Source: an uncultured Planctomycetales bacterium (lineage in GTDB: Bacteria > Omnitrophota > Gorgyraeia > Zapsychrales > Zapsychraceae). From it: 64,000 nt of DNA. The notes below the pieces were generated by a model. The model did not search any database. It was not told the origin of the DNA and saw nothing but the letters and a program-made list of their open reading frames with translations. The translations under genes and the position numbers were made by a program. Shown here piece after piece: positions 22,677-61,723 of this stretch; position 1 is the first letter of the stretch; each line of letters opens with the position of its first letter. The stretch spans positions 171-64,170 of the forward strand of contig CAZHWM010000024.1 in assembly GCA_964535935.1 (NCBI GenBank), in the 5' to 3' direction.

Positions 22677-22684
22677 AACATGCT

Positions 22685-22982: not shown

Positions 22983-23066
22983 CAATTATGGAAAGCTGTA
23001 TATTTAAACTTATATCATTTTAACGAAAGACAAACAATATAAATTATACTTTATTTTATCTTTCAT

Positions 23067-23886: not shown

Positions 23887-23929
23887 GATATTTTTAATCT
23901 TGTTTAAACAATTTTTTACAGGGGCTATT

Positions 23930-34299: not shown

Positions 34300-34345
34300 A
34301 ATATGAGTTGTATGCTTAAAATTGCCCTTTTGTGGGAGGGAAAAT

Positions 34346-36972: not shown

Positions 36973-39132
36973 ATGAGTGTAAAAATAATTACGATATTTA
37001 GCAATAAAGGTGGAGTAGGCAAGACTTTTATTGCCGTTAATCTATCCACTGTTTTTGCTCTTGAAGGTAAAAAGGTTTTATTGATAGATTTAGATTTTCA
37101 GGCAGGACAAGAGATAGCGAGAATGTTTAACATTGCTCCACGTATGGCAATAGTAGATGTAGTGGATCAGATAGAGGTTTCAGATAAACCAGAAATTGTT
37201 ATGGAGAATACTAGTAGGCATTCTTGTGGATTGCATTTTATTCCGGCTGTACGTAATACGAAACAGTTGGCAAAAATTGACAGAGATAAAATAACAGTTT
37301 TTTTAGAGCGAGCGGCTCAGTATTATGATTATATTATTATAGATGGAGGAAAGACTTTTAGTGATACATTAATATCCGCATTTGATATGTCTAATCTTAT
37401 TTTGTTGATAGCTACTCCTGATGTATTGGCTGTATATCAAGTAAAGTGGTGTATAGATGTGCTTCAAAAGTTACAGTTTCCTCTTAAAATGGTAAAACTT
37501 ATTTTAAATCGTTCTGAGAGTAGGGGGAGTGTTGCTTGGCAGGAGGTTCGTTCTGTGTTGCCATGTGAGATATTCGGGCATGTCCCATCTGATGGTAAGA
37601 CCGTAGGGATGGCATTAAATAGAGGAATTCCGTGTGTGATAGATAGTCCTAGAAGCAGGGTATCTGATGCCTTTAATAAAATAGCTAATATGTTGAGACA
37701 AGAATCTGTATATGTCCCGGTTACCGATGTGAAAAAGTTACGGGATACAGAGGGGTTAGTTAGGCCAGGGGGTTTTTGGGAGAAGTTTGGGGTATCGCAG
37801 CATGTGCAAATGGGAGAAGTGGCATTTTCTGTACAAGAAGATGATATTATTGTTCTTAAACGTAAAATACATGAAAAATTAATAAAAAGGCTTAATTTAG
37901 ATGGAATTACTGTGGACGTGTTGAGTGATTCTAATACATTGCAACGAGTTAGAAAGACAGCAGAGGAAGTGGTAGGCAATTTATTAATGGAAGAGTCTGC
38001 TGGGAGGGCTATGTCGCGAGAGGAGAGGGTATATCTTGTAAAAGATATAGTAAATGAGTCTTTGGGCTTAGGTCCTTTAGAAGACTTTCTTGCTGACCCG
38101 GAGATAACCGATATTATGGTAAATAATAAGGATGAGATTTATGTAGAAAAAAAAGGGAAACTTATTCTTACGAATAAGAGATTTGTTTCAGATGCAAAGG
38201 TAAGGGCTATTATTGATAGAATTATAGCACCGTTAGGAAGAAGAATAGATGAGTCTACTCCAATGGTAGATGCCCGTTTGCCAGATGGTTCTAGAATAAA
38301 TGCAATTATTCCACCACTTTCTTTAGGAGGACCTATGATTACTATACGTAAATTTGGCCAGGAGCGGTTAAAAATAGATGATTTGTTATATAAATATCAT
38401 AGCCTTACACCAGAAATGGCAGATTTTCTACGTGCTTGTGTGTGGGGAAGAAAAAATATTATTATTTCTGGAGGGACAGGTTCAGGGAAGACAACATTGC
38501 TTAATGTTATATCAGAATTTATACCAGATGGGGAACGTATTATTACAATAGAGGATGCTGCAGAGTTAAAACTTAAGAAGAGCCATTGGGCTAGATTAGA
38601 GTCTCGGCCCCCCAATGTGGAAGGGAAGGGAGAGGTTACCATAAGAGATTTATTTATTAATAGTTTACGTATGCGGCCGGATAGAATAGTTATAGGGGAG
38701 TGTCGAGGCCCAGAGGTCCTTGATATGCTACAGGCAATGAATACAGGTCATGATGGTTCAATGACCACGCTACATGCTAATTCTACACGAGATGCCTTAA
38801 TTAGAATGCATTCTATGATTTTGTTAAGCGGGATAGAGCTTCCTGTTAGGGCGATTAATGAAATGATATCTTCTGCGATTCATATTATTGTGCATGCAAG
38901 CAGGTATTCTGATGGATCAAGAAAGATTACAGGAATTACTGAAACTATTGGGTTAAGTGAAGATTTTTATGTCGAGATGGCGGATATATTTATTTTTAAG
39001 CAGACAGCTTTGGATAAAGATGGTAAAGTTTTGGGACATTTTGAACCTACAGGATATGTTCCTAAGTGTTATGATGAATTTATTACAAGAGGAATTCATT
39101 TAGATAAGAGTATTTTTGAAAAGAAATCATAA
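36973..39132 (+). CDS. tadA: Fusion of a TadZ/CpaE-like MinD/ParA ATPase domain to a TadA/CpaF secretion ATPase
   Basis: aa 1-~250: KIITIFSNKGGVGKTFIAVNLS deviant Walker A, MinD/ParA fold. aa ~330-719: T2SSE ATPase with Walker A GGTGSGKTTLLN, Asp box, Walker B RIVIGECRG, His box TGHDGSMTTLHAN. Confidence 0.85.
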   Translation: MSVKIITIFSNKGGVGKTFIAVNLSTVFALEGKKVLLIDLDFQAGQEIARMFNIAPRMAIVDVVDQIEVSDKPEIVMENTSRHSCGLHFIPAVRNTKQLAKIDRDKITVFLERAAQYYDYIIIDGGKTFSDTLISAFDMSNLILLIATPDVLAVYQVKWCIDVLQKLQFPLKMVKLILNRSESRGSVAWQEVRSVLPCEIFGHVPSDGKTVGMALNRGIPCVIDSPRSRVSDAFNKIANMLRQESVYVPVTDVKKLRDTEGLVRPGGFWEKFGVSQHVQMGEVAFSVQEDDIIVLKRKIHEKLIKRLNLDGITVDVLSDSNTLQRVRKTAEEVVGNLLMEESAGRAMSREERVYLVKDIVNESLGLGPLEDFLADPEITDIMVNNKDEIYVEKKGKLILTNKRFVSDAKVRAIIDRIIAPLGRRIDESTPMVDARLPDGSRINAIIPPLSLGGPMITIRKFGQERLKIDDLLYKYHSLTPEMADFLRACVWGRKNIIISGGTGSGKTTLLNVISEFIPDGERIITIEDAAELKLKKSHWARLESRPPNVEGKGEVTIRDLFINSLRMRPDRIVIGECRGPEVLDMLQAMNTGHDGSMTTLHANSTRDALIRMHSMILLSGIELPVRAINEMISSAIHIIVHASRYSDGSRKITGITETIGLSEDFYVEMADIFIFKQTALDKDGKVLGHFEPTGYVPKCYDEFITRGIHLDKSIFEKKS

Positions 39133-39155: not shown

Positions 39156-39500
39156 TTGAAAATTATTAATAAGACTTCCAATATAACTATTGCAGAAAAG
39201 GCTGTCGTTGCAAATAGTTTCCTATCTAGATTGGTGGGTCTTCTTAATAGAAGGTTCCTTCCAAAAGGAGAGGCTCTCATTATTACAAAGTGTAAATCCA
39301 TCCATATGTTTTTTATGAAGTTTCCAATAGACGCTATCTTTGTAGACAAGAATAATCATGTAGTAGGGATAGTAAAAAATATTAAGCCATTTCAGTTAAG
39401 TCCTGTTTTTATCTCTTCGAATTATGTTATAGAAGCACCTGTAGGGACTATTGTTAAGGCAAGGGTTGCTATAGGGGATAATATTGAATTGCAACAATAG
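39156..39500 (+). CDS. DUF192-family protein
   Basis: 114 aa, TTG start. ANSFLSRLVGLLNRRFLPKGEALIITKCKSIHMFFMKFPIDAIFVDKNNHVVGI matches the DUF192 (COG1430) pattern. Confidence 0.6.
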   Translation: MKIINKTSNITIAEKAVVANSFLSRLVGLLNRRFLPKGEALIITKCKSIHMFFMKFPIDAIFVDKNNHVVGIVKNIKPFQLSPVFISSNYVIEAPVGTIVKARVAIGDNIELQQ

Positions 39501-39526: not shown

Positions 39527-41425
39527 ATGGGGACAGTTTATAAGGTAAGAGAAGAAGTGAAGGATTTTATTATTTCTACAAGAAAAAAGAATCCTTCTTT
39601 TAGTTGTAGAATATTAGCCGAACTAGTGGCAGATAAGTTTCATATAACGATTTCTAAGTCGTATGTTAATACTATATTAAAAAGGGCGAAATTGAATGGT
39701 CCTCTGGGTAGAAAGATAACTATTCGACGGAATGCCCGTAGAATTATTATCCCTAAAGAAAAAAAAGAACAGATTTTTCGTAGTATACAACAAGTCGAAG
39801 TCGCTACTAAACTAAATAAAGATGAGTTTGAAAAAGAAAATTTGATTCAAAAAAATGTTGAAATAAATAATGATAACAGAGATAAGAAACTTATAGAGAA
39901 ATCTAATTTGGATATGCCAGAGGATGTTTTTATTAATATGAAAACATCTAGAACGAAAAGAATGAATCTGCGTCAAGGGCCTTATCGTCGAATGGGAACT
40001 ATTTTTTTGAATGCGGCTGAGTGGACAGCAACAGAATATTCAGTTTTAGGCAGGATTATTTTACGATATATACAAGAAAAGAAAAGAGAAAATCGTTGGG
40101 ATGGATTGTTTAATAGAGTTATGCGGAATATATATAGAGAAAATAGAATATTTGATTTAGGCTGTATTTTCCCAAGATATTTAGATAATCAGAAAGAATT
40201 ATATTTAGGTGCTTTATGTGGGGTTTTGATGGCATATGGAGATGGTTTCAACAATAAAGCCTTTAGTAGATTGGCAGATTATGGGCTATATACATTGAAT
40301 GGAATTTATGAAGAGATAGACATAGCTTCATTTGTGGTATGGTTAAGGCAACAGATAATAGGAGATTCTTTTGTTATAGAATATTTAAAAGAAAAGGATA
40401 GTTTTTTTGCGGAGCTTGCAGGGATACAAATTAATTTAAATTCTGGGGCAAAAATTTTTTTTGATAGCAATAGAGAGTTAAAAGGTTTTTTAAAAAAAGA
40501 AAAAACAATACCTATGAAACGGGCTTTATCTATGGCTTCTAAGCAGATTATTGCAAATACAGAACCAGCTGTATTCTTTTGCGAACTGCAAAACAAAGAT
40601 GATTATAAGAGATTTTATGATATTATTTCAGCATTTGAGAATATATCAGGGGATGGAATACGGTCTCTGGCATTATGTGATTTAGACGGTCAGTTAGTAG
40701 TTGATTTTGATATTATTCCAAGAATAAAAAGAAAATTTATTTTAGGTGTGTTATGCATGGATAAAGATAATTCACCTTTAATATCAACATATTCGACGGA
40801 TAAACAGAGAGTGGTGTATCTTGAATCTATAAATAAGCTAATATGGTTTTATGAAGATGTTCAAGATATTATTGTTTCTAAAAACAACGATAAAATAAGG
40901 GTAAGGAGAATATGTATAGATAAATACGATGATTTTAAAGATAAGATGATAATAATAACTAACGATGTAAATAATAAGGCAGATAAGATTATAGATAAAT
41001 GTTTTTATTCAATGTTGATATATAATAGTAAAAAAAATATAAATATAAATATTGTAAAAGAACTAAAACAATTAGATGGGAATAAAAAAGAAAAACAAAA
41101 TTCTTGTTTTTTTAATTCTTCTTTGAAAAGTATTTCTTTATGGGATATAGTTGTTGATTATACTAATACGTTGATAGAATATAGTGAAAGAGAATTTATG
41201 TTTAATAAGTTTTGTAATAATAGGGAGATATTACAATCATGGTTAAATTTCCCAGGATTCGTTTATGAAGGCAATAAATGTTTATCAATAATCCTTCTTC
41301 CACCCGTAGATTATCAATATATGGATTATTTAAATTTGGCTGTTTATGAGTTAAACAGTAGAGAGATATATGATTTTTTTGGAAGAAAATTATATATTGA
41401 TATAGAAAAAAATAAAGCAATTTAA
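39527..41425 (+). CDS. 632-aa protein with N-terminal HTH-like segment, otherwise unrecognised
   Basis: The first ~60 aa (VKDFIISTRKKNPSFSCRILAELVADKFHITISKSYVNTILKRA) look like a transposase- or regulator-style HTH. The remainder is Asn/Lys/Ile-rich with no motif I recognise. Confidence 0.5.
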   Translation: MGTVYKVREEVKDFIISTRKKNPSFSCRILAELVADKFHITISKSYVNTILKRAKLNGPLGRKITIRRNARRIIIPKEKKEQIFRSIQQVEVATKLNKDEFEKENLIQKNVEINNDNRDKKLIEKSNLDMPEDVFINMKTSRTKRMNLRQGPYRRMGTIFLNAAEWTATEYSVLGRIILRYIQEKKRENRWDGLFNRVMRNIYRENRIFDLGCIFPRYLDNQKELYLGALCGVLMAYGDGFNNKAFSRLADYGLYTLNGIYEEIDIASFVVWLRQQIIGDSFVIEYLKEKDSFFAELAGIQINLNSGAKIFFDSNRELKGFLKKEKTIPMKRALSMASKQIIANTEPAVFFCELQNKDDYKRFYDIISAFENISGDGIRSLALCDLDGQLVVDFDIIPRIKRKFILGVLCMDKDNSPLISTYSTDKQRVVYLESINKLIWFYEDVQDIIVSKNNDKIRVRRICIDKYDDFKDKMIIITNDVNNKADKIIDKCFYSMLIYNSKKNININIVKELKQLDGNKKEKQNSCFFNSSLKSISLWDIVVDYTNTLIEYSEREFMFNKFCNNREILQSWLNFPGFVYEGNKCLSIILLPPVDYQYMDYLNLAVYELNSREIYDFFGRKLYIDIEKNKAI

Positions 41426-41447: not shown

Positions 41448-41475
41448 TTGACTCTTTTGGGTTATATGATATACT
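41448..41475 (+). promoter_or_regulatory. Sigma70-like promoter for the flp cluster (TTGACT-16 nt-TATACT)
   Basis: -35 TTGACT 41448-41453. -10 TATACT 41470-41475. About 200 nt upstream of the first flp start. Confidence 0.55.
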
Positions 41476-41684: not shown

Positions 41685-41858
41685 ATGTGGTACGGCAAAA
41701 TAATAAAAAAGATAAAAAATAAAAGGGCTCAAAGTATATTAGAATATACCATGGTCGCGGCTGTCATAGGAGCTGCAGCAGTGGCAATGGCTACCTACGT
41801 GTTTCGCTCTGTCCAGGCAACACAGCAAATGATTCAAAAAGAATCCCAAGCAGAATAA
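41685..41858 (+). CDS. flp: Flp-type prepilin 1 (57 aa)
   Basis: MWYGKIIKKIKNKRA|QSILEYTMVAAVIGAAAVAMATYVF: basic leader, xxxEY motif, hydrophobic helix. The track ORF starts 11 codons further upstream. Confidence 0.75.
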   Translation: MWYGKIIKKIKNKRAQSILEYTMVAAVIGAAAVAMATYVFRSVQATQQMIQKESQAE

Positions 41859-41909
41859 ATAAAAAGAAGATTATAAATTAAAGGAAATAGTTTTTAAGGA
41901 GGAGAAATA

Positions 41910-42131
41910 ATGCTTAAAATGTATATAAAACCGAAGGCAACAAGAAAAAAGAAAGGCCAAAGTACAGTTGAGTATCTTATTTTAATTGGCTGTGTAATGG
42001 CAGCTTTGGTTATATTTTTGAGACCAAACGGTATCTTTCATAAGAGATTAAATTCTACGTTGAATACAGTGACTTCAGATATGACAAACCTGGCAACTAG
42101 AATGATAAAATCTCATCCGGTTGCTCCTTAA
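41910..42131 (+). CDS. flp: Flp-type prepilin 2 (73 aa)
   Basis: AAGGAGGAG RBS. MLKMYIKPKATRKKKG|QSTVEYLILIGCVMAALVIFL. Confidence 0.8.
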   Translation: MLKMYIKPKATRKKKGQSTVEYLILIGCVMAALVIFLRPNGIFHKRLNSTLNTVTSDMTNLATRMIKSHPVAP

Positions 42132-42230
42132 TAGAGGGCAGTGTTAAAAATAATATTAATTAAAAATAAGTGTTTTTAGTTAAGATAATTGCAAGGCAAT
42201 TAACCTAACAATCTTTAGGAGGTAAAATAA

Positions 42231-42617
42231 ATGTTTAGAAAATTGGTTAAAAATAAAAAGGCACAAAATACAGCCGAATATGCGATACTAATTTCTTTGG
42301 TTGTGGCTGGTATTATTGCAATGCAGACCTTTGCTCAGAGGGCCATTCAGGCACGAATCCGTGATGCTGCTCACTATGGAGCGGATATTACTACTACTGT
42401 TCCAACTGGTGGAGTAACGATTAATGGAACAGTGCAGGCAGAACCTTATTATTTAGATACGAACTATCAAATCAGCAGATATGATGCATCGACAAAGTCA
42501 ATTGATGCTACTAAAACAGTTGGTGGGGTTAAGCAGCAGTCTTTTGGTAATAATGTTAGGGCAAGTGGAGGCTATTCTAGGTCTTCGTTTGGTGGAGCTT
42601 ATGGTACGATTAAATAA
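42231..42617 (+). CDS. Long Flp-like prepilin 3 (128 aa)
   Basis: TAGGAGGT RBS. MFRKLVKNKKA|QNTAEYAILISLVVAGIIAMQTFAQRAIQARIRDAA... Confidence 0.75.
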   Translation: MFRKLVKNKKAQNTAEYAILISLVVAGIIAMQTFAQRAIQARIRDAAHYGADITTTVPTGGVTINGTVQAEPYYLDTNYQISRYDASTKSIDATKTVGGVKQQSFGNNVRASGGYSRSSFGGAYGTIK

Positions 42618-42701
42618 ATTAGTAAGCTAAAGAAGGAAAAAATAAAATTATTTTATAAATATAATTAGAAAATAGAGAGCTAAAATTAGGAGGATTATCT
42701 G

Positions 42702-43040
42702 ATGATTAAATATTTTAATAATAAAAAAAAGAGAAAGAAAGGGCAGACAACACTAGAATATGCTATTTTGGTGATTATAATTATAGCTGCTCTTATTTCT
42801 ATTCAGACATATATTAAGAGAGGTATACAAGGTAGATTAAGAAGCGCAGCTGATGATATAGGTGATCAATATTCTCCAGGGAATACAAATGTGGTAGTAC
42901 GAACCGTTTCTAAGAGTACAACTCTTGATAGAAATCTTCAAGGTGATTCAAAATCTACATTATTGTCGGATGAAGTTAGTAATACCACAACTAATATAAC
43001 CATTGTGAATGGTGTATGGTCATTCTGGGGTGGTAAATAA
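42702..43040 (+). CDS. Long Flp-like prepilin 4 (112 aa)
   Basis: TAGGAGGA RBS. MIKYFNNKKKRKKG|QTTLEYAILVIIIIAALISIQTYIKRGIQGRLRSAADDIGDQYSPG. Confidence 0.8.
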   Translation: MIKYFNNKKKRKKGQTTLEYAILVIIIIAALISIQTYIKRGIQGRLRSAADDIGDQYSPGNTNVVVRTVSKSTTLDRNLQGDSKSTLLSDEVSNTTTNITIVNGVWSFWGGK

Positions 43041-43078
43041 TTTTTTAATTGTTTTGGTTTTGTAAAAACAGACAAAGG

Positions 43079-43110
43079 GGCCTGCATGGAATATGCAGGC
43101 CTTTTGTTTT
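43079..43110 (+). terminator. Rho-independent terminator after prepilin 4
   Basis: GGCCTGCAT-ggaat-ATGCAGGCC followed by TTTTGTTTT. Confidence 0.8.
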
Positions 43111-43116
43111 ATATTC

Positions 43117-43145
43117 TTGTTATTTGGTAATAAAAATAGTATAAT
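43117..43145 (+). promoter_or_regulatory. Sigma70-like promoter (TTGTTA-17 nt-TATAAT) immediately before prepilin 5
   Basis: -35 43117-43122. -10 43140-43145. The ATG at 43155 lies only 9 nt after the -10 and has no SD, so the mRNA may be leaderless. Confidence 0.5.
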
Positions 43146-43154
43146 TATAGTATA

Positions 43155-43535
43155 ATGATAAGGATATTAAAAGAAATAAAAGGACAATCTATTGCCGGGG
43201 AATATGCTTTATTGTTTTCTCTCGTGGTGGCAGTAGTGATTGCTATGGGAGTTTTTATTAAACGATCTATACAGGCTAGATGGTTCGATACACGAGACTA
43301 TATAGTTTTGTCAGCTAATGCTTATGTGGATGGCTACTATAATGGTCCTCTTTATTATGAATACGAGCCATATTATACTAATACCACTACAGATACAAAG
43401 AGGGCAGAAATAGTAGAACAACGGCTTTTGGCGTCTCATTCCGGACATCCTGTAGGTATTTCTAGAAGAATAGAAGATATGCATGTTGATATGTTTACTA
43501 ATAGTATAACCGCTCCACCAAAAGATGCGGATTAA
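43155..43535 (+). CDS. Long Flp-like prepilin 5 (126 aa)
   Basis: MIRILKEIKG|QSIAGEYALLFSLVVAVVIAMGVFIKRSIQARW... Confidence 0.7.
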   Translation: MIRILKEIKGQSIAGEYALLFSLVVAVVIAMGVFIKRSIQARWFDTRDYIVLSANAYVDGYYNGPLYYEYEPYYTNTTTDTKRAEIVEQRLLASHSGHPVGISRRIEDMHVDMFTNSITAPPKDAD

Positions 43536-43887
43536 GAGAGAAAATGATATTATGAATAGCTTTTTTTTTAATAGTCGTGGTCAAAGTCTTTTGCAGTATA
43601 CTATGATTTTAGGAATAACAGCCACGGTTTTTATTGTGATGGCGCCTATGCTTAGAAGACTGTCACAGGGATTTATAAAAGTTGCAGCAGATCAGATAGG
43701 AACACAACAGAACGGAGAACAGAGTTTTGATTTGCGAGGTGGGTATTTAAAAAATAGTGTTCAATGGCGGGGTGGTTTTACGGATAAAAAGACACAGGAG
43801 TTTGCTGGGAATATTACTTATTCTTATAATGATGAGACGCAAGCATGGTCTAAGAGTGAGGTGGATATGGGATTTTCTTCTAAATAG
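43525..43887 (+). CDS. Long Flp-like prepilin 6 (120 aa; alternative start 43552)
   Basis: ...MNSFFFNSRG|QSLLQYTMILGITATVFIVMAPMLRRLSQGFIKVAADQIG. Start uncertain: 43525 overlaps prepilin 5 by 11 nt. Confidence 0.7.
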   Translation: MRIKRENDIMNSFFFNSRGQSLLQYTMILGITATVFIVMAPMLRRLSQGFIKVAADQIGTQQNGEQSFDLRGGYLKNSVQWRGGFTDKKTQEFAGNITYSYNDETQAWSKSEVDMGFSSK

Positions 43888-43930
43888 AAATTTAATTTGT
43901 CTTTATAATATATTGAGGTATAAAAGTAAT

Positions 43931-44245
43931 ATGAAAATTTTTAAGAAACAGGCACAGGTTACGATAGAATATGTTACTCTTGTTGTTATTGTTATAGGCG
44001 GATTAATTGCTATGAGTATATATTTTAAACGAGCAATGCAAGGCAGGTGGAGGTCTGCTTTGGATAATTTAGGTGAACAATATGACCCCCGTTTCGCAAA
44101 CACGGACATAAGACATAAATTATATAGTCATTCTGTAACTAAAATACGGGCAATAAATGCAGATGGAGGCTGGTATACTAGTAGGACAGATGAGATTGTG
44201 ACCAACGAACTCAAGACAGGGTATCGTTCTATTGGTGCGTATTGA
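43931..44245 (+). CDS. Long Flp-like prepilin 7 (104 aa)
   Basis: MKIFKKQA|QVTIEYVTLVVIVIGGLIAMSIYFKRAMQGRWRSALDNLGEQYDP. GAGGT lies upstream. The track ORF (from 43757) carries an unsupported 58-codon extension overlapping prepilin 6. Confidence 0.75.
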   Translation: MKIFKKQAQVTIEYVTLVVIVIGGLIAMSIYFKRAMQGRWRSALDNLGEQYDPRFANTDIRHKLYSHSVTKIRAINADGGWYTSRTDEIVTNELKTGYRSIGAY

Positions 44246-45663
44246 TGAGGGAAGATATTAGGATGGATTATTTAGAGCAGAGATATAGGCAAAAGAAAGA
44301 TTATCGAAAGGCCCAGGCGGTAATTGAATTAGCTGTTTTTGGAGCTGTTCTTATATTTGTAATAGGTCTTATCGTACGTCAACAGATAAACTATTCTTTA
44401 GTGCAAAATCAGCAACTTAGGGCTATGCGGTGGGCTATGGCTCTGTCTCATATGCATTCAGAGGGATTAATTGATATAGGAGGAGGGTCTGATGGGGATA
44501 TGTCCAGAAACAACGCGGGAGTAATAGTAGTCGAAGATCGGCTGACAGCAGATGCAGGTAAATATGGGGCAGTAAATAGGATACCATTGATTGCTATGGG
44601 AGATGCTACTCATAGTAGAAATTTGTATATGCCTATGGAGTATGGAGAACGATATAATCTTTCTGTTACAGATATGATTATAAATGGCCAGCATTTTGTA
44701 TTTACAACAGGAGATTTTAGACAGGTAAATCTTGACCCTTCTTCAGGTGGGTGTCCTGTTTTATGGAAAAGGGCATATAATTATCCTTATGTTCAGTTTC
44801 AGAGTGAGTGGTGTTCAAAAGATCCTTGTCCAGGGGGAGCTAGTGCATGGAATACAGTATCATGGAGATTTGATTTAGATCACAGTGGGTTTAAATCGTC
44901 TCCGCCAGTTGCTGAACCAGATGTTCCGGCTAGTCCTGCTAGTTTAAGGCAGAGATTTACATGGCAATGGGAGCCAATATCTTTTCATGATATTGATCCT
45001 GATGATAATAAAAATGTCTTTGTTGATGTAGATTGGTGTTGTCAATATGCCCCATGGTCTTCTCAGCCATGGTGTAGTAGAGGAGGAGACCCTGAACCAG
45101 AGTATGTTATGAAGAGAAAAGGATCTATAGGGTATGTGTATGATACGCAATTAGGAGACCTTGATTTTTCTTCAGATCAACAACCCCCACCAGGCTTATT
45201 AAGAGATAGAGATATAGAAACATATGTATTAGATGATAAAAATGGAACATATATGCGGGTGGAGGAGGGGGAAAAGCATGATCCTTCTAAATCAGGAATA
45301 TTGTCTTTGTTTATTCGTACAACACAAAAGAAACATTCTATAGATATAGTACAGAGGATTATACAATTAAGCAATGATACAAATAGGTTTTGTGATAGGA
45401 ATCATAAGCCGACTTGTTCTCCTGGTTCTAATCCGGCAGATTGTGCTAGTGCCTTATGGACAGCAGCGGTCCCAAATCCAGTAAAGGCATGTTCTGATTG
45501 TATGGGGGCCAATGCGACTGTTACTTGTATGGATGAGGGAGATATGTCTGCCCATCCTCCTAGACGACCTAGAATTTTTGTCAGAAGTAGGATACTTGAT
45601 AGGCACGGTAGGCGTTGGGCCACCAATTTGGATAAAGATCCCTATATTAATATTCATAGATAA
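44245..45663 (+). CDS. Large TadE-like pseudopilin (~472 aa), rich in Cys, Trp and Pro
   Basis: The ATG overlaps the prepilin 7 stop (TGATG). N-terminus ...DYRKA|QAVIELAVFGAVLIFVIGLIV is a TadE-like class III signal. 12 Cys by my count (for example DVDWCCQYAPWSSQPWCSRGG). Confidence 0.7.
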   Translation: MREDIRMDYLEQRYRQKKDYRKAQAVIELAVFGAVLIFVIGLIVRQQINYSLVQNQQLRAMRWAMALSHMHSEGLIDIGGGSDGDMSRNNAGVIVVEDRLTADAGKYGAVNRIPLIAMGDATHSRNLYMPMEYGERYNLSVTDMIINGQHFVFTTGDFRQVNLDPSSGGCPVLWKRAYNYPYVQFQSEWCSKDPCPGGASAWNTVSWRFDLDHSGFKSSPPVAEPDVPASPASLRQRFTWQWEPISFHDIDPDDNKNVFVDVDWCCQYAPWSSQPWCSRGGDPEPEYVMKRKGSIGYVYDTQLGDLDFSSDQQPPPGLLRDRDIETYVLDDKNGTYMRVEEGEKHDPSKSGILSLFIRTTQKKHSIDIVQRIIQLSNDTNRFCDRNHKPTCSPGSNPADCASALWTAAVPNPVKACSDCMGANATVTCMDEGDMSAHPPRRPRIFVRSRILDRHGRRWATNLDKDPYINIHR

Positions 45664-45677
45664 TATTTTTATAAATA

Positions 45678-45962
45678 ATGAAAAATAACCTTAAAATGAT
45701 TAAAGGGAAAAAAGCGCAAGTAATAATGGAATTTTCTTTATGTATGTTTATTATTTTTTTGATGATTTTTGCTTTGGTAAAGATTTTAAGATGGACAGGG
45801 ATAGATTTGGTAGAAAGAAGAAGGGCCCATGATAAGGCATTACATCAACCAATAAAGGAAGATTATTCTTATAGCGCTCCATGGCAGGGGCCTTTAAAGC
45901 AAATAGATCCTTATTTTTATGGTTCTTATTCGATGAATGCAGTGTGGAAGGGTGCATATTAA
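45678..45962 (+). CDS. Small TadE/TadF-like pseudopilin (94 aa)
   Basis: MKNNLKMIKGKKA|QVIMEFSLCMFIIFLMIFALVKILRW. Confidence 0.7.
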   Translation: MKNNLKMIKGKKAQVIMEFSLCMFIIFLMIFALVKILRWTGIDLVERRRAHDKALHQPIKEDYSYSAPWQGPLKQIDPYFYGSYSMNAVWKGAY

Positions 45963-45988: not shown

Positions 45989-48900
45989 GTGATTTTTAAT
46001 CATAACAACAGATTAGAAAAAGGGCAGGTAGGATTGATATTAATTTTTTTGGTAGCAATTGCACTTATTGTTTATGCTGTGACTATGAATGTTGGTGCTA
46101 TGAGCAAAACAAAGACTCTTGTAACAATTGCAGCAAATACAGGGGCTAGTTATATGGCCTCTGCAATGGCTAGTTATGGTCAGAAAATACTACAGGAAGA
46201 GATGGGCGGCCATAGGAAGAAATGTGCCTCAACGAACCTTTTGGTAATGATTATATCTTTTATTATAGCGGTAATAATTGTTGTTGTTAGTTGGGGTAGC
46301 GGGACGGCATTGGCTTTTGCGATTATAGGTTTAGCACTTTCTGCGATAGCTATTGTTATACAGATGGTTGTAATTCAGCCTAAGATAACAGATTTATGGA
46401 ATTCTATAATGGCGAAAATGATGGGGCCTGCTGACAGAATTGTTGAGACGGGTATTTTGACAGGATTAAGACATGCTGTTACGGATAATGCTAAGGTCCC
46501 GGATGTTTATGATTTAGATATGGATGGCAAATTTGGATTTATAGGAGATAAACCTGTTGATACAGTAGGTAGATTTTCTGTATATTATAATGAACGGCTT
46601 AAGGAAATAAAAAAGGTTTATGATTCTAAGGTATTAGAGAATTTTAGGTATGCATTAGCAGATTTTATATATAAGAGTCCGTCTTTTTCAAAACCATCAG
46701 GATATCCTTATGCAGAAACTCCTGACTGGGGGATATTTGATCCCATTGATTGTGATAGTTATCCTGGGGATCCATGTTGTCAGGCAAATCCGCCTTCAAT
46801 ATGTAATCGGTGTTGTGTCCCGGCTCAAGTTCCGGATTTGGATTATAAAGGGAATCCTATTCTTGATAGTAGTGGGAATCTTGTGATGATTGATGTGCGG
46901 CCAGCTTGTTGTGATGCTGTCGGGACAGGTGTTCCAAGTTGCGGTAGTTCTACTATATGTTCAGCTAACAGTGCCTATCCAAATGATTCTCCTCCTCCTA
47001 GCTCTTATTATCCTTGGTTATATGATCCTTCTTATCAGAATACCATGAATAATGATCCTTCTAAGCCAAATTATTTTGTTTCTTTTTTAGAGGCATTAGG
47101 AAGAGACGATGAACGTCCTGATTATTTTAGGGATCCGGTAGATATAAATGATAACCCTCAAATATCGCATGCCTCTGTAGGGACACCAGCAGGTTATTAT
47201 ATAGAGGATGCTACAGGATATGTTAATGATCCCAGTATATTTGGTGCATATTATGGTAAGATGGATAGACGCCCAGGAATTTTTCCATTTTTTTATAAGA
47301 TAGCTGATTGGGGTATGGATTTAAATAAAATAACTCCTCTTAATCCTGCTACAGAAGAACATTGTTATTGGTGCGATTCAAGAGATACTGTTAATTGTGC
47401 TAGTTGTCCGTCTATACCTACTCCTTTGACTATTCCATATCATCCACTTGAATTATTACCACAATTATCTTTGCCTGTGGATCCTTCTACACTCACTTAT
47501 AATACTACTTATTTTGTAGATGGGACTAATAATCCAGTTGATTTAGCCAATCCGAATAATCCCCCTTTGGCTGTGGATAAGATTACATTGCCTGGCAATA
47601 TTTTAGCAGCAGAAACGGATTGCGCAGAAGAGGCCTTTGCAGATGCAGATGGAAATGGTGTGATAGATAATCCCAATTTAGGGTTTTGGAAAAGAGGGAT
47701 AGAAAGATTTTGTAATTTGGAAGATCCGCCAGAATGGCCATATGAATTAGGGTGTCATTTTTCGCCTATTAATGCTACTCATAATCATTTATGTGATTAT
47801 CCTGATGGTGCGCCTGATGCGGCATGGTCAGAATGTGATTGCAGTCATCCTGATAGCGATCCTGATAAGACTACGTTTAGAGCAGATATTATTGATGACT
47901 GGGTATATGGTATGTATGAGATGGTAAAGTTTTCCGCTACTTTAATAAATATGACTCCCTTGCAACTATCTCAGAATGTTGAAAAATGGTATTCTACAGC
48001 AATGGATTGGTTCGGTGAGGATGGTGCTGCACAAAAATGGAAGGATGAGATAAAAGAAGTAGCCTCTCGAATTAGAAAGTGGATTGAAAAGACGAGCTAT
48101 GCAGGTGCGAATTGCAATGAGGTTTGGTGCGTTCCTCCTTCTAGTGATCCTTCAAATCCTGGAAGCAGCTGTCCGGGGGTCCCAGATGAAGAGTTAATGA
48201 CGATAGATTCAAATAATAATGGAGTTGAAGGAGATATGGAGGATATAGTTTCTTGTCTTAATTACAATGTAGAGGGATATGACCAAAGAGGATTCTTTCG
48301 TATGAAGAAATGTCTTGATAATTGTAGCAACAGTAATTGTCAACGCTTGCCCAAAACAAATCAATTTGGAGATCCATATACATGGCCAGCAGCCCCATCT
48401 AGTTTTGATGAAACGGTTAGTTGTACAGGTAGCGGGAGCGGTGGTTGGAATACATCTGATCCTTGGTATATTGCATTACAGGATAATATCAAAAAGACCA
48501 ATAATCCTAAAGGGACAGATAATGGTAATGCAACTAGATTTGATAAATGTGCCCATACTTGTTCTTTAGAGTATTGTTATAAATTACCAAGGTCTTTAGT
48601 CCCGAATATCCCTGCTACTGGTAATTATGACTCCCAGAATTATCATCCAGTTGATCCTGCTAATGCAGATGCGGATTGGATAGATATTGTTTCTTTTAGA
48701 GATTGTTTAGAGCATTGTAGTGATGCTAATTGTATGAGTGAGAGCAATGGAGGACCATTGCCAGAAGTGCGTAGTAGAGATGGGATACCGTATTCCGCTA
48801 CATATCCTAATAGTGGTGTATTTAATGAAACTGTGGATTGTGTGGGGTGGGCACCGGGCAATGCATGGTATGATGCGGTTGAGACTAATCTCGCAGAGGC

Positions 48901-49993
48901 ATCTCATAATGCCAATCCGGATTATGCAGGAGTAGAGCAGATGTTATCATGTTTTTATTCATGTAGCGATAGTAATTGTCAAGCTATGCCAACGGTACAG
49001 GATGACGGAACAGCTTATACTTGGCCAGCAGATCCCTTTAGTTTTGATGAAACTGTGGAATGTACTGCAGGTGTTGGGAACCCTTTGCCTGCGGGGGCAT
49101 GGAGAAAGGATCTTGTTGCTAATGTTTTACAGGCAACAGGTGGGGCAGGGGTATCGTCTTGTGATTTAAACCCTGGCGGATGGCTTAATTTGACAGAACA
49201 AAGTGCGTTAGAGGCAAAAAATCAGGTTGCAAAGTTTAAACAACGTAGAAATTTTTTGGAAGCTCGAGTTAAAGAAGCCAAAAATATATTAAATATCTTG
49301 GATACAGCATATACTAATTTTAATAATTTTTTGAGTCAAGCAGTAAAAGACTTAGAAACAGACATAATTAATAATTATTATAAGTCTAATCCTTCTGCTT
49401 TGCCAAGATATGTTGTATATGGATGGAAGACAGATAGTTCTTCAGGGCGTAGCCCAGGGTGGCATGTTGTAAAGGTTGAGACGCATATTCCTACGAGATG
49501 TAATAATGCCTGTGATGTGAGCCAGACAGGACCAGCGAAATGGCCTAGGGTGAAGACTTGGACGGAAAATTGGGGCACAAAACGGTGTTATAAATTAATC
49601 AATACAGATGGGGTTGTAAAGATAAGGGTGACGAGATATGATGAACAGGCAAACGAAGATAAGCTTATAAAGTTTCCTAATGGTATGCCAATATGGAAGT
49701 TTAGGTTTGTCGATTCAAGAAGACCGTTTTATGCGGGAGATTTGGATAAAATATGTGGCCTTTTGGCATTAAAGGACCCACCTCCTGAATTATTGCCGGC
49801 AGGAGTTAGTGATATATATGCAGGGGCATTTTTGATGAATAAAAGAAATTCAACCAATTCAGCTTGTTGGGATTATGTTCATAGGTTGCTTGCATCAGGG
49901 GTTACAACTGAGACATGTGCAGAATATTATTATCATTCTAAACCAGATGAGGATATAGGATTGAAATTTGTCCCTTGCACACATCCTTTTTAA
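45989..49993 (+). CDS. Giant TadG-like protein (1334 aa), ~48 Cys, two extra TM helices, internal Cys-module repeats
   Basis: GAGGGGAG RBS plus GTG start. N-terminus NRLEKG|QVGLILIFLVAIALIVYAVTMNVGAMSKTKTLVTIAANTGASYMASAMAS fits the TadG N-terminal pattern. Two more hydrophobic helices at aa ~80-130. The large remainder is rich in Cys, Pro, Asp and Trp. Confidence 0.75.
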   Translation: MIFNHNNRLEKGQVGLILIFLVAIALIVYAVTMNVGAMSKTKTLVTIAANTGASYMASAMASYGQKILQEEMGGHRKKCASTNLLVMIISFIIAVIIVVVSWGSGTALAFAIIGLALSAIAIVIQMVVIQPKITDLWNSIMAKMMGPADRIVETGILTGLRHAVTDNAKVPDVYDLDMDGKFGFIGDKPVDTVGRFSVYYNERLKEIKKVYDSKVLENFRYALADFIYKSPSFSKPSGYPYAETPDWGIFDPIDCDSYPGDPCCQANPPSICNRCCVPAQVPDLDYKGNPILDSSGNLVMIDVRPACCDAVGTGVPSCGSSTICSANSAYPNDSPPPSSYYPWLYDPSYQNTMNNDPSKPNYFVSFLEALGRDDERPDYFRDPVDINDNPQISHASVGTPAGYYIEDATGYVNDPSIFGAYYGKMDRRPGIFPFFYKIADWGMDLNKITPLNPATEEHCYWCDSRDTVNCASCPSIPTPLTIPYHPLELLPQLSLPVDPSTLTYNTTYFVDGTNNPVDLANPNNPPLAVDKITLPGNILAAETDCAEEAFADADGNGVIDNPNLGFWKRGIERFCNLEDPPEWPYELGCHFSPINATHNHLCDYPDGAPDAAWSECDCSHPDSDPDKTTFRADIIDDWVYGMYEMVKFSATLINMTPLQLSQNVEKWYSTAMDWFGEDGAAQKWKDEIKEVASRIRKWIEKTSYAGANCNEVWCVPPSSDPSNPGSSCPGVPDEELMTIDSNNNGVEGDMEDIVSCLNYNVEGYDQRGFFRMKKCLDNCSNSNCQRLPKTNQFGDPYTWPAAPSSFDETVSCTGSGSGGWNTSDPWYIALQDNIKKTNNPKGTDNGNATRFDKCAHTCSLEYCYKLPRSLVPNIPATGNYDSQNYHPVDPANADADWIDIVSFRDCLEHCSDANCMSESNGGPLPEVRSRDGIPYSATYPNSGVFNETVDCVGWAPGNAWYDAVETNLAEASHNANPDYAGVEQMLSCFYSCSDSNCQAMPTVQDDGTAYTWPADPFSFDETVECTAGVGNPLPAGAWRKDLVANVLQATGGAGVSSCDLNPGGWLNLTEQSALEAKNQVAKFKQRRNFLEARVKEAKNILNILDTAYTNFNNFLSQAVKDLETDIINNYYKSNPSALPRYVVYGWKTDSSSGRSPGWHVVKVETHIPTRCNNACDVSQTGPAKWPRVKTWTENWGTKRCYKLINTDGVVKIRVTRYDEQANEDKLIKFPNGMPIWKFRFVDSRRPFYAGDLDKICGLLALKDPPPELLPAGVSDIYAGAFLMNKRNSTNSACWDYVHRLLASGVTTETCAEYYYHSKPDEDIGLKFVPCTHPF
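48300..49150 (+). repeat. Four protein-level repeats of a Cys module inside the 1334-aa ORF
   Basis: KKCLDNCSNSNCQRLP...YTWPAAPSSFDETVSCTG; FDKCAHTCSLEYCYKLP...; FRDCLEHCSDANCMSE...YPNSGVFNETVDCVG; MLSCFYSCSDSNCQAMP...YTWPADPFSFDETVECTA. The shared signature is C-x3-C-x5-C. Confidence 0.75.
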
Positions 49994-50011: not shown

Positions 50012-50383
50012 ATGAAAAGAAAAATGAGACAATATGGCCAAGCGACATTAGAACTTGTAGCAATTATTATATTAATATTATCAGCTTTACTTATATTTCA
50101 GAAGTATATAGTTCGTACGATGATGGGGAGATGGAAGATGGCAGGGGATGCATTGGGTAAGGGGAAGATATATTCTCCTAGTAGTACTGTAGAATGTGCT
50201 TATGAATATCGTTTTAGTCCGCCTCCAGGTGCATGGTATGATGTAAAATGTTTTTATGCAGATCCATCATGTCCACCAGCATGTTTTTCTCCATCGGGAT
50301 TTGGGGCTGATCCAGCTAAGTGTAGGGCATGTGTAAGCAAATGTTATAATCCTGCTTGTGAAGATGATTGGGGCGGGACATAA
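50012..50383 (+). CDS. Flp-like prepilin with Cys-rich C-terminal domain (123 aa)
   Basis: AAGGAGAG upstream. MKRKMRQYG|QATLELVAIIILILSALLIFQKYIVRTMMGRWKMAGDALGKGKIYSP. 8 Cys in the last ~62 aa. Confidence 0.75.
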   Translation: MKRKMRQYGQATLELVAIIILILSALLIFQKYIVRTMMGRWKMAGDALGKGKIYSPSSTVECAYEYRFSPPPGAWYDVKCFYADPSCPPACFSPSGFGADPAKCRACVSKCYNPACEDDWGGT

Positions 50384-57445: not shown

Positions 57446-57506
57446 TCTAACTCTAACTCATGTTTCTATTCTGCACTATTTAACCTTGTTGATTTGTGCA
57501 GGATGT

Positions 57507-59939: not shown

Positions 59940-59955
59940 TTAAGAGGTTGAAAAA

Positions 59956-61689: not shown

Positions 61690-61723
61690 TATAAATATAT
61701 TTTAGATTAGAGGATGAGATAGA

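Follow-up and report, generated by a model that had tools for sequence, protein, structure and literature searches.

The seven small genes p1 to p7 are genuine and conserved, encode subunits of a Tad-type (type IVc) pilus and occur all across the uncultured phylum Omnitrophota. They make up an unnamed pilin family, and the machine, the locus and the glutamine at the first mature position (+1) are all of known kinds. The genes lie in a 64,000-nucleotide stretch of DNA, here called the window, and were first pointed out in a sequence-only reading of it as seven adjacent prepilin ORFs of 57 to 128 amino acids. All seven are present on the + strand exactly where that reading placed them; its observation is confirmed, its interpretation only in part. 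Arrows in the following list mark the processing site, and the start of p6 was set at 43552 from orthologue comparison.

41685-41858, + strand: p1, 57-aa Flp-sized prepilin, KRA↓QSILEY, mature protein about 41 aa
41910-42131, + strand: p2, 73-aa prepilin, KKG↓QSTVEY
42231-42617, + strand: p3, 128-aa prepilin, KKA↓QNTAEY; QRAIQAR in the helix and, past this motif, QAEPYY (class consensus QYEPYY)
42702-43040, + strand: p4, 112-aa prepilin, KKG↓QTTLEY; complete helix motif YIKRGIQGRLRSAADDIGDQYSP
43155-43535, + strand: p5, 126-aa prepilin, KG↓QSIAGEY; KRSIQARW in the helix; EYEPYY motif
43552-43887, + strand: p6, 111-aa prepilin, RG↓QSLLQY; RRLSQGFIKVAADQIG in the helix
43931-44245, + strand: p7, 104-aa prepilin, QA↓QVTIEY; complete helix motif YFKRAMQGRWRSALDNLGEQYDP; conserved C-terminal signature (class consensus G.wT.R.D ... 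vg.y)

Comparison with two relatives revealed purifying selection in every gene of the locus, the C-terminal halves of the pilins included. For the seven pilin genes, dN/dS ranges from 0.04 to 0.26 (p1, 0.16; p2, 0.06-0.16; p3, 0.16-0.18; p4, 0.04 against the related locus L001; p5, 0.16-0.26; p6, 0.14-0.22; p7, 0.09-0.11). A lack of such selection had been named beforehand as grounds for giving up the ORFs; these values show constraint.

All seven precursors carry a K/R-rich leader of 8-16 residues that ends in G or A and is followed by glutamine, and in 7/7 a tyrosine at +6 precedes a hydrophobic stretch. The basic leader and the pattern (G/A)↓Q-x-x-x-(E/Q)-Y that had been described for the set, with Gln at +1 in every member, are thus borne out. 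Glutamate occupies +5 in five of the seven; p6 has Gln there, and in p5 the Glu is shifted by one inserted residue (QSIAGEY), which is real and kept in the orthologues from L001, L004, L040 and L073. Position +3 holds Thr, not Ser, in p2, p3, p4 and p7. We scanned all six frames of the whole 64-kb window with a detector that asked for G, A or S at -1, E or Q at +5 or +6, a hydrophobic stretch of 14 uncharged residues, one or more K or R upstream and a start codon nearby, and that made no demand for Gln. It returned exactly ten sites, each with Gln at +1 and each on the + strand in the interval 41.7-50.1 kb: the seven pilin genes and three further genes downstream, with none outside the locus. 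Since all ten fall into one locus, chance is excluded. The same signature pervades 83 related loci, where 95% of 626 small prepilin ORFs have Gln at +1; Glu is found at +5 in 537/540 (99%), Tyr at +6 in 472/540 and Thr at +3 in 56%.

The +1 glutamine is neither unusual nor new, being already present in annotated bacterial Flp pilins and in substrates of the archaeal peptidase EppA. For EppA, Gln at +1 is a known specificity determinant that is needed for cleavage (PMC4390842). On the bacterial side, EEEG↓QGLVEY occurs in PF04964-positive proteins from Desulforudis, Firmicutes, Chloroflexus, Rifleibacteriota and Desulfobacteria that NCBI calls “Flp family type IVb pilin.” A cut behind the G or A at -1, exposing Gln as the first residue, would be made by a prepilin peptidase whose gene lies elsewhere. 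This processing is an assumption, since a search for Peptidase_A24 genes that covered most window ORFs of 100 aa or longer, the 10 kb downstream and three related 20-kb loci (L001, L005 and L007) came up empty; nor was an EppA-like gene seen in this DNA. Once exposed, the N-terminal Gln may cyclise to pyroglutamate, an idea put forward as speculation in the sequence-only reading. Its sole precedent is in the archaeal Epd pilus, as the major pilin of Methanococcus maripaludis bears an N-terminal pyroglutamate (PMC4471445).

The genes surrounding the array, which lie 10.4-28.3 kb past the start of dnaA, are those of a tad locus:

33352-34299, + strand: SurA-like peptidyl-prolyl isomerase, conserved first gene of the locus (Pfam Rotamase_2, Rotamase_3, SurA_N)
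34322-35227, + strand: RcpC/CpaB (PF16976, E 9e-25)
35285-36877, + strand: secretin of RcpA/CpaC type with C-terminal TonB_C domain (PF00263 1e-41, PF13629 8e-11, PF03544 1.5e-15)
36973-39132, + strand: fusion of a TadZ-like ParA/MinD ATPase (AAA_31/ParA, residues 4-240) with a CpaF/TadA assembly ATPase (T2SSE, 365-640)
39156-39500, + strand: DUF192 protein, conserved within the locus (PF02643 4.7e-18; also in L001 and L005)
39527-41425, + strand: 632-aa protein ahead of the pilin array, function unassigned (weak HTH_32 match only)
44242-45663, + strand: 473-aa protein with prepilin-like N terminus RKA↓QAVIEL, start codon uncertain (no Pfam match; dN/dS 0.12)
45678-45962, + strand: 94-aa prepilin-like protein, KKA↓QVIMEF, weakly TadE-like (PF07811, 14.0 bits)
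45989-49993, + strand: 1334-aa Cys/Pro-rich protein with pilin-like leader EKG↓QVGLIL (no Pfam match; dN/dS 0.10)
50012-50383, + strand: 123-aa prepilin-like protein, YG↓QATLEL, with partial motif VRTMMGRWKMAGDALG and Cys-rich C terminus (dN/dS 0.11)
50402-51259, + strand: TadB-like inner-membrane platform protein (PF00482 1.2e-17; dN/dS 0.02)
51296-52180, + strand: TadC-like inner-membrane platform protein (PF00482 7.8e-14; dN/dS 0.035)

The presence of RcpC, a secretin, a CpaF-type ATPase and two T2SSF platform genes upholds the assignment of the seven proteins to the Tad prepilins of the Flp superfamily. The best solved relative of the assembly ATPase is CpaF (E 2.7e-116, 393 bits), with archaeal FlaI reaching only 3.6e-35. 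The 632-aa gene has the highest dN/dS of the locus (0.40), and its counterparts measure 618 aa in L001 and 978 aa in L005. Four downstream proteins had been described as larger relatives with the same leader and mostly Glu at +5. Their leaders are indeed prepilin-like, but two of the four are merely 94 and 123 aa long; Glu is found at +5 in the 473-, 94- and 123-aa proteins, and the 1334-aa protein has Ile. Counterparts of the 473-aa protein are 462-476 aa long in L001, L005 and L007, and the 94-aa class follows its gene immediately in 40/48 loci. The 1334-aa protein, with counterparts of 1336 aa in L001 and 1018 aa in L005, is a candidate TadG-like large subunit or adhesin.

Tad loci have been reported in Omnitrophota, where they are expressed in V. 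archaeovorus and occupy 12.4-29.8 kb of its chromosome (Seymour et al. 2023, PMC10066038), and a 2023 preprint mentions the small genes in passing and records the isomerase gene as conserved in the locus (West-Roberts et al., bioRxiv 10.1101/2023.11.21.568195). Our window holds the complete Omnitrophota gene set, namely a Rotamase_2 isomerase (at an equivalent position in L001, L006 and L007), RcpC, secretin, ATPase, small genes with a class III signal and two T2SSF genes. In both reports, however, the small genes went unanalyzed; what is worked out here is how they fall into seven fixed classes and in which order, together with the helix motif, the statistics of the +1 Gln and the terminator-like hairpin behind p4. 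The preprint calls the conserved locus a secretion system preceding giant genes, and the machine might accordingly be mainly a type II-like secretion or delivery device: instead of a long adhesive fibre, the many pilin-like proteins would form a short periplasmic pseudopilus that forces giant surface proteins, or effectors, out via the secretin. This would agree with the ORFs of about 4,300 aa after TadC in L005 and L007, with the unusual TonB_C domain on the secretin and with a major subunit accompanied by several minor ones with globular parts, as in GspG-K. We nevertheless consider it unlikely, as the CpaF-type motor, the split TadB/TadC platform and RcpC are the Tad pilus set, and as TadC in the window is followed by a GlnRS gene, with no giant gene of thousands of codons directly downstream. 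Tad systems, moreover, are known to act as pilus machines. Both roles could be combined in one apparatus.

How the seven subunits relate to one another is best seen across species. In 48 species' loci with full flanks, each class occurs in 41 to 48 (p1, 47; p2, 47; p3, 48; p5, 41; p6, 41; p7, 42), every class has its own consensus sequence, and the commonest gene order is p1-p2-p3-p4-p5-p6-p7-p94. The mature N terminus of p3 is 69% identical across the phylum and that of p4 73% on average, with the N-terminal 56 residues of p4 almost invariant among 48 homologues. As the most conserved member, p4 is the candidate main subunit. Separate orthologous classes in the same order throughout the phylum are better explained by a fixed set of different subunits than by alternative major pilins. 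Both possibilities had been raised in the sequence-only reading, of which the defined set is favored and the alternative major subunits are disfavored. If the paralogues, with their common leader and helix, were major pilins expressed singly or in changing combinations, as a means of antigenic or functional variation, the far greater variability between species of their C-terminal parts than of their N termini would be accounted for. We regard this as very improbable, because each class keeps its signature and its place, sizes spread from 57 to 128 aa, the selection described above acts on all classes and on their C-terminal halves, and neither inverted repeats nor switching elements were noticed. 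Turnover of copy number and order, usual in variation systems, is not seen here.

Compared with the curated pilin families, the seven proteins stand near Flp and outside it. They share the Flp signature of a leader with G or A as its last residue, then XXXXEY and a hydrophobic helix, with p5 and p6 deviating at the Glu, yet none reaches the PF04964 threshold of 32.2 bits; the best score is 13.7 bits (p4), p1 has no match at E <= 1, and a single one of 48 p4-family members matches at E <= 0.01. The L005 orthologue of p1 does have a precomputed PF04964 Flp_Fap match, and hhalign aligns the p4 family with G↓Q-type Flp at a probability of 80% (E 1.4e-5) over 45 columns, a suggestive match in a short, hydrophobic region. 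The closest likeness is to the G↓QGLVEY subgroup of Flp from Firmicutes, Chloroflexus and Rifleibacteriota, which likewise combines a short leader ending in Gly and a hydrophobic helix with Gln, Glu and Tyr at +1, +5 and +6, and Flp genes also neighbor CpaF/TadA, TadB, TadC, RcpC and secretin. In contrast, the leaders are basic here (KKKG) and acidic there (EEEG), Flp systems have one or two flp genes in place of seven fixed classes, and no tadV lies inside this locus. Only p1 (about 41 aa) and p2 (about 57 aa) have the mature size of Flp, which is essentially all-helical and about 40-60 aa long. The mature p3 to p7 (about 96-117 aa; precursors of 104-128 aa) add the KR.IQGR...D..G.Q helix extension and a probably beta-rich C-terminal part, with beta strands predicted beyond the helix.

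A second likeness is to the archaeal Epd pilins of M. maripaludis (PF04021/UPF0333), which share the (K/R)G↓Q-x-(S/T)-x-E site with Gln at +1. The class III signal Q-x-S-x-E after a (K/R)-G site is present in our set with Thr mostly replacing Ser. PF04021 gives the best Pfam match, which is below its threshold of 23.7 bits (p4, 21.9 bits; p2, 20.9 bits; no match for the remaining five); 16/48 p4-family members match at E <= 0.01. The Epd system, like the present one, has a split TadB/TadC-like platform. It differs from our locus, which is bacterial and has a secretin, RcpC and a CpaF-type ATPase, and to our knowledge the KR.IQGR motif is not among the described Epd features. In the Epd pilus, a single major pilin is accompanied by several minor ones that are essential (PMC3875500), and no system is more closely related to Tad than Epd (PMC6668835). 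That the set is an Epd-type module acquired recently from archaea that served as prey or hosts and then joined to a bacterial machine could be argued from this resemblance, from the JGI label “UPF0333 family” on many members of the motif family and from the predation of V. archaeovorus on a methanogen (PMC10066038), but we give it hardly any credence: ordinary Flp pilins from several bacterial phyla carry G↓Q...EY as well, the set extends across the phylum in a vertically conserved order, the ATPase is much nearer bacterial CpaF than archaeal FlaI, and, all Tad systems being thought ancient descendants of an Epd-like system (PMC6668835), the likeness is explained without recent transfer.

A third comparison concerns the minor subunits. 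Like TadE/TadF/TadG and the type IVa/T2SS (GspH-K) minor pilins, the locus encodes, downstream, several pilin-like proteins with the processing site of the major pilin, including, as in TadE/F/G, one very large member (the 1334-aa protein). It differs from TadE/F/G in subunit number (seven small and four others) and in sequence; the sole match to PF07811 (TadE) is that of the 94-aa protein (E 0.057), below the threshold of 22.9 bits. For minor pilins, a role in priming or at the tip is expected.

The motif claimed for p3 to p7 and the 123-aa protein fared unevenly. Its complete form, KR.(I/M)QGR(W/L)R.A.D..G.QY.P, is confined to p4 and p7. The other four proteins have the core (K/Q/R/V)R..(Q/M)(G/A)(R/F), common to all six, with fragments of the remainder. 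Nor does it follow the hydrophobic helix, as had been thought: AlphaFold2 places it inside one continuous helix (residues 17-57 in p4, 2-50 in p7), with pLDDT above 80 over about residues 15-50 in the p4 model. In these models the motif is predicted to form the amphipathic second (outer) half of a single long N-terminal helix. The C-terminal domains of p4 and p7 are modeled with low confidence (pLDDT about 45-65), including a long beta hairpin beyond the helix of p7, and no PDB structure matches the p4 model. That the motif lies outside the curated families proved correct, no Pfam or NCBIfam match attaining its cut-off; it is absent from the annotated Flp/TadE families, where it might have been common. 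Around 1,500 protein clusters contain it, nearly all from Omnitrophota, and relatives of p4 occur in 236 species-representative genomes, almost all labeled Omnitrophota among the 80 listed. The motif is therefore common, not rare, yet essentially confined to this phylum.

Taken together, the seven genes probably encode the small subunits (prepilins) of an Omnitrophota Tad-type, type IVc pilus that would work as follows. The hydrophobic helix would anchor each precursor in the inner membrane, and after processing the CpaF-type ATPase and the TadB/TadC platform would polymerise the subunits via their long N-terminal helices into a fibre that leaves through the RcpC/secretin channel. The KR.IQGR...D..G.Q motif may provide a common packing surface that lets different subunits join one fibre. 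The seven represent ancient distinct classes in constant order rather than interchangeable copies. A division into abundant and minor subunits is suggested by the hairpin behind p4, the strong ribosome-binding sites of p2 to p4 and the very strong conservation of p3 and p4. It is tempting to speculate that p1 to p4 are abundant shaft subunits, the main one being p4 or the Flp-sized p1, and that p5 to p7 and the 473-, 94-, 1334- and 123-aa proteins are low-abundance minor subunits for assembly priming or the tip.

The expression signals behind this division are the following:

41448-41475, + strand: promoter-like site TTGACT-16-TATACT, TG-extended, 5' of p1 (consensus scan, 10/12 matches)
43075-43115, + strand: intrinsic-terminator-like hairpin with a 14-bp stem and a T-run, in the p4/p5 gap (RNAfold -25 kcal/mol, z = -3.9)
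43117-43145, + strand: putative promoter-like site TTGTTA-17-TATAAT, immediately 5' of p5

The site 5' of p1 is weak evidence, because such sites are no more numerous in the region than in shuffled sequence. AGGAGG ribosome-binding sites precede p2 and p4, and p5 has no Shine-Dalgarno sequence. The p4-specific terminator-like hairpin is new in this analysis. A hairpin with a T-run lies 3' of p4 in 39/69 loci (57%, with a strict detector) and after each other pilin gene in 0-1 of about 60. Its stem sequences vary from locus to locus, the widest intergenic gap is likewise the one after p4, and the promoter-like site at p5 is kept in L001 and L003.

The window covers a region of a bacterial chromosome around the replication origin, where the GC skew changes sign near 24 kb, and includes one co-oriented locus.

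Main features of the window and its prepilin-like genes
23900-25270: dnaA, followed by dnaN, with yidC, parA and parB on the opposite side
33.3-52.2 kb: the co-oriented locus, first half: SurA-like prolyl isomerase, RcpC/CpaB, secretin with C-terminal TonB_C, fusion of a TadZ-like ParA ATPase with a T2SSE ATPase
33.3-52.2 kb: the same locus, second half: DUF192 protein, 632-aa unknown protein, pilin array, four other pilin-like genes, two T2SSF platform genes (TadB/TadC)
41685-44245, +: pilin array, p1 to p7, seven consecutive ORFs of 57, 73, 128, 112, 126, 111 and 104 aa
43075-43115: hairpin with a 14-bp stem, then a T-run, between p4 and p5
44242-45663, +: 473-aa protein with the same kind of N-terminus as p1-p7
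45678-45962, +: 94-aa protein (p94), same kind of N-terminus
45989-49993, +: 1334-aa protein, same kind of N-terminus, Ile at +5
50012-50383, +: 123-aa protein, same kind of N-terminus

Searched against solved structures, the ATPase of the locus matched CpaF with an E value of 2.7e-116 and archaeal FlaI with one of 3.6e-35; with these genes, the locus is of the Tad (type IVc pilus) type. It lies 10.4-28.3 kb past the start of dnaA, and the expressed Tad locus of Velamenicoccus archaeovorus occupies 12.4-29.8 kb of its chromosome (Seymour et al., PMC10066038). Neither the scanned ORFs of the window, nor the next 10 kb downstream (read from an identical ENA contig), nor three related 20-kb loci yielded a prepilin peptidase gene. 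Less probably, the locus may serve mainly to secrete or deliver giant proteins, as West-Roberts et al. suggest (10.1101/2023.11.21.568195); giant ORFs lie downstream of two related loci in other genomes (L005 and L007), but no giant ORF follows the locus in the window.

One 719-aa protein of the locus (36973-39132, +) combines the TadZ-like ParA/MinD ATPase with the CpaF/TadA ATPase, which classical tad loci encode separately; this fusion recurs in L005, L007 and a further related locus, L001 (713-720 aa). The secretin (35285-36877, +) carries its C-terminal TonB_C domain (PF03544, 1.5e-15) in a pairing unusual for secretins, kept in L001, L005, L006 and L007. Between the ATPase and the pilin array lies the DUF192 (COG1430) gene (39156-39500, +), whose position is kept in L001 and L005 and which has no known role in Tad systems. 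The 632-aa protein immediately ahead of the pilins (39527-41425, +) gave only a weak HTH match; no gene of the locus evolves faster (63% identity and dN/dS 0.40 against L001), and the positional counterpart in L005 has 978 aa.

Within the Tad locus, all of p1-p7 share a short K/R-rich leader ending in Gly or Ala, then Gln as the first residue after the predicted cleavage site (+1), Tyr at +6 and an uncharged hydrophobic stretch; the +5 residue is Glu, apart from Gln in p6 and one extra residue ahead of the Glu in p5. We ran a neutral detector (G/A/S at -1, E/Q at +5 or +6, a hydrophobic 14-mer, at least one upstream basic residue and a start codon, with Gln at +1 not required) on the six frames of the window. 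It returned ten sites, every one of them in the Tad locus and with Gln at +1, so the pattern is real and far beyond chance; the 1334-aa protein falls outside the ten because of its Ile at +5. The seven prepilins with +1 Gln described in the sequence-only reading are thus present as ORFs and are recovered without asking for the Gln. The long motif of that reading, taken here as KR.(I/M)QGR(W/L)R.A.D..G.QY.P, held up less evenly, being complete in p4 and p7 only and reduced to its core in p3, p5, p6 and the 123-aa protein. The 1334-aa protein, Cys- and Pro-rich behind its pilin-like leader, has no Pfam domain and contains repeated '...C...NC...' segments; it could be a disulfide-rich tip adhesin.

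Four relatives carry all seven genes in unchanged order: three of them are near (two NCBI assemblies and a Logan contig; p7 84% identical), and the fourth is a more distant ENA contig (p7 74% identical). For p1-p7, pairwise dN/dS ranged from 0.04 to 0.18 when the closer relative was compared and from 0.11 to 0.26 with the distant one, with dS of about 0.3-2; TadB, TadC and the ATPase gave 0.02-0.04. The range among relatives, 0.04-0.26, answers a doubt raised along with the original proposal, namely that the ORFs might lack purifying selection. This selection acts on both the N- and the C-terminal halves of the pilins, and a search for positive selection in the C-terminal halves saw none (omega 0.04-0.45). 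Orthologue conservation and dN/dS together rule out p1-p7 as spurious ORFs.

Applied to 83 related loci, the neutral detector picked out 626 small prepilin ORFs; each was assigned to its best-matching paralogue in the window, and order was scored in the 48 loci with full flanks. The exact order p1-p2-p3-p4-p5-p6-p7-p94 was found in 22/48, most of the remaining loci having one gene missing or one extra, and each class occurred in 41-48 of the 48. Outside the N-terminus that they have in common, the classes each carry a consensus of their own: AMSTYVFRSVQATQ in p1, QYEPYY in p3, EYEPYY in p5, IKVvaDQvG in p6 and QGRWK..vDdlGdQYDPr ... G.wT.R.D in p7. Over the first 45 mature residues, mean phylum-wide identity falls from p4 (0.73) through p3 (0.69) and p1 (0.62) to p7 (0.59), and in the C-terminal parts it is 0.26-0.36. 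In this survey, p1-p7 are a fixed set, not a variable battery. The sequence-only reading had left a choice between alternative major subunits and a defined set: the former, in which the paralogues would replace one another as the major pilin, is disfavoured by the fixed orthology, and the latter gains from classes that keep both their consensus and their order.

How widely is this set distributed, and does it belong to a curated family? A profile search with the N-terminal 60 residues as query retrieved 299 clusters (at 90% identity), nearly all of 100-115 aa and either unnamed or called 'hypothetical protein [Candidatus Omnitrophota]', the JGI label often being 'UPF0333 family'. The alignment and profile search proposed with the motif were carried out on p4: HMMER with a 48-sequence alignment, run exhaustively against 1.84 billion representatives, gave 4,317 matches at E <= 1e-3 and 1,501 at E <= 1e-10. 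A p4 relative is encoded in 236 genomes (one genome per GTDB species); the 80 listed of these are either Omnitrophota by name or MAGs under a generic label ('uncultured Planctomycetales' and the like), and those with enough flank show the same array of small prepilin-like genes. The window itself therefore most probably comes from a member of Omnitrophota. The same locus stands in records labelled Phycisphaerae, Saccharibacteria or Planctomycetales (L006/L014, BPJO01000031.1; L009; many 'uncultured Planctomycetales' MAGs), which are either mislabelled Omnitrophota MAGs or cases of locus transfer; in L006, which seems to be GC-rich, several of the pilin ORFs are broken.

When all ten pilin-like proteins were scanned with Pfam and NCBIfam, every match stayed under the gathering cut-offs, in agreement with the original remark that the motif is not associated with described Flp families; searching PDB sequences with the N-terminal profile returned nothing meaningful. 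Among 48 members of the p4 family, 16 matched PF04021 (archaeal class III signal peptide/UPF0333 family) and one PF04964 (Flp/Fap pilin). In a profile-profile comparison, the p4 family matched the G|Q Flp group (the bar marks the cleavage site) with a probability of 80% and E 1.4e-5 over a short hydrophobic region. We regard p1-p7 as an unnamed pilin family that is restricted to the phylum and organised in seven defined classes within a known machine type, and not as a new kind of system. An Omnitrophota Tad locus has already been described (PMC10066038), and its small genes were left unanalysed both there and in 10.1101/2023.11.21.568195.

The predicted cleavage site is strongly conserved. 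Among the 626 ORFs, position -1 is G in 405, A in 204 and S in 17, and +1 is Q in 597 (95%); +3 is T in 304/540, +5 is E in 537/540 and +6 is Y in 472/540. The +1 Gln is a phylum-wide property of Omnitrophota loci; about 5% of the surveyed ORFs lack it, so it is strongly preferred, not obligatory. One orthologue of the 123-aa protein (L005, 16791-17195) reads KRA|ASMIEY, with Ala in its place. Nor is the residue new or peculiar. A synthetic Flp probe composed for the purpose retrieved 537 clusters of PF04964-positive proteins, those named in their sources being 'Flp family type IVb pilin' or 'Flp/PilA' from Desulforudis, Clostridiales, Firmicutes, Chloroflexus, Rifleibacteriota and Desulfobacteria, and EEEG|QGLVEY was present in 20/20 inspected sequences; the probe itself contains G|Q, so the result establishes the existence of annotated Flp pilins with G|Q and not how frequent they are among all Flp. 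In the archaeal Epd (EppA-dependent) pilus, the closest relative of Tad systems (PMC6668835), cleavage by EppA requires +1 Gln (PMC4390842). Compared with the archaeal class III and Flp models, the Omnitrophota signature, (K/R)G|Q-x-T-x-E-Y behind a basic leader, is closer to class III. A recent transfer of the pilin set from archaea is disfavoured, and we rejected it given the CpaF-like ATPase and the G|Q of ordinary bacterial Flp pilins.

Structure prediction, proposed at the outset for filaments, was run for single subunits of p4 and p7 and gave confident helices with low-confidence C-termini. AlphaFold2 models p4 (48-sequence alignment) as a single continuous helix over residues 17-57, with pLDDT >80 at about 15-50 and low-confidence strands after it, and p7 (9 sequences) as a helix over residues 2-50 plus a long hairpin, its C-terminal part being of low confidence; Foldseek with the p4 model against the PDB found no match with E below 1. 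The motif had been placed after the hydrophobic helix, but in both models it sits inside the continuous helix; as modelled, it makes up the second, amphipathic half of helix alpha-1, as in other type IV pilins. In p4, hydrophobic residues recur every 3-4 positions (I38, I42, L46, A49/A50, I53, Y57), and the K, R, Q, G, R, D and G between them are invariant. We infer that the KR.IQGR motif provides a common packing surface in the fibre.

Putative expression signals divide the array after p4. The hairpin between p4 and p5 folds with z = -3.9, and a stem of at least 9 bp plus a T-run within 130 nt 3' of the gene was found after p4 in 39/69 loci, probably an undercount since the detector tolerates no bulges, and after each other pilin gene in 0-1 of about 60. 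It persists across species though stem sequences vary, and a median of 132 nt separates p4 from the next gene, compared with 18-51 nt at the other gaps of the array. Ribosome-binding sites (AGGAGG) precede p2, p3 and p4 and are weak or absent on p5-p7; an Rfam scan in and near the array found no known RNA element. Immediately 3' of the hairpin, in 43117-43155 (+), lies a promoter-like site with a -10 box (TATAAT, 43140-43145) that ends 9 nt ahead of the start codon of p5. No Shine-Dalgarno sequence precedes p5, and use of the site would make its mRNA leaderless or nearly so. The element is kept in L001 and L003, where the start codon lies about 35 nt further on. The simplest reading would be a strongly expressed p1-p4 unit closed by an attenuating terminator; p5 onward would depend on read-through or on a weaker promoter.

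In a Tad pilus built from this set, a peptidase acting in trans would cut after G/A, CpaF with TadB/TadC would extract the subunits from the membrane and polymerise them, and the fibre would exit via RcpC and the secretin. The abundant subunits would be p1-p4, the main one p4 or the Flp-sized p1, and p5-p7 with the 473-, 94-, 1334- and 123-aa proteins would be minor or tip subunits, by analogy with minor pilins generally and with those of the Epd pilus, several of which are essential (PMC3875500). The sequences show that the genes are real and which family and type of locus they belong to, as well as the fixed order and the position-specific hairpin; cleavage, pyroglutamate formation, subunit abundance and co-assembly are inferences. 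It is tempting to go further and speculate that the pilus is a true heteropolymer, in which co-transcribed, abundant and distinct p1-p4 form the shaft via the KR.IQGR surface, each with an N-terminal pyroglutamate from its +1 Gln in archaeal style, and the seven-protein minor complex (p5-p7 and the 473-, 94-, 1334- and 123-aa proteins) makes a large tip for seizing prey or presenting giant proteins; taken as a whole, this is a long shot. If true, it would mean a pilus architecture unlike that of any studied Tad system.

Omnitrophota are widespread, uncultured, ultra-small and thought to be predators or parasites, and the Tad locus ranks among the main genomic arguments for that way of life. 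With seven small and four other pilin-like subunits known to form a fixed set, marked by a helix motif that defines the family and by a conserved transcription-stop-like hairpin after the fourth gene, the fibre becomes directly testable, and proteomics, antibodies, cryo-EM model building and annotation all gain concrete targets; about 1,500 'hypothetical' protein clusters could get names. The set also adds a data point on the persistence of the archaeal-type Q-x-S/T-x-E signal in bacterial Tad systems.

Elsewhere in the window, three tandem paralogues of 617, 577 and 626 aa (58086-63604, +) have YadA-head-like repeats, with an 84-bp tandem repeat at 61117-61341, and are probable surface adhesins; a peptidoglycan-binding protein (57381-58010) lies ahead of them. 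Two large ORFs have no Pfam domain (8522-12844, -, 1440 aa; 13123-14850, -, 575 aa); the signal-peptide-like N-terminus and C-terminal aromatic residue (Phe) of the second suggest an outer-membrane beta-barrel, and beside it runs a 1.7-kb AT-rich stretch without an ORF >95 aa (14850-16568). Just upstream of dnaA, GC content drops to 22% (22000-24000), and AT-rich tandem repeats (22157-22981) span the 3' part of yidC and the yidC-dnaA intergenic region; this AT-rich region is probably oriC. A 428-aa protein (54049-55335, +) had no Pfam match in our scan, and its orthologue carries a precomputed match to PF27218 (MJ0043_C), a domain named for an archaeal protein.
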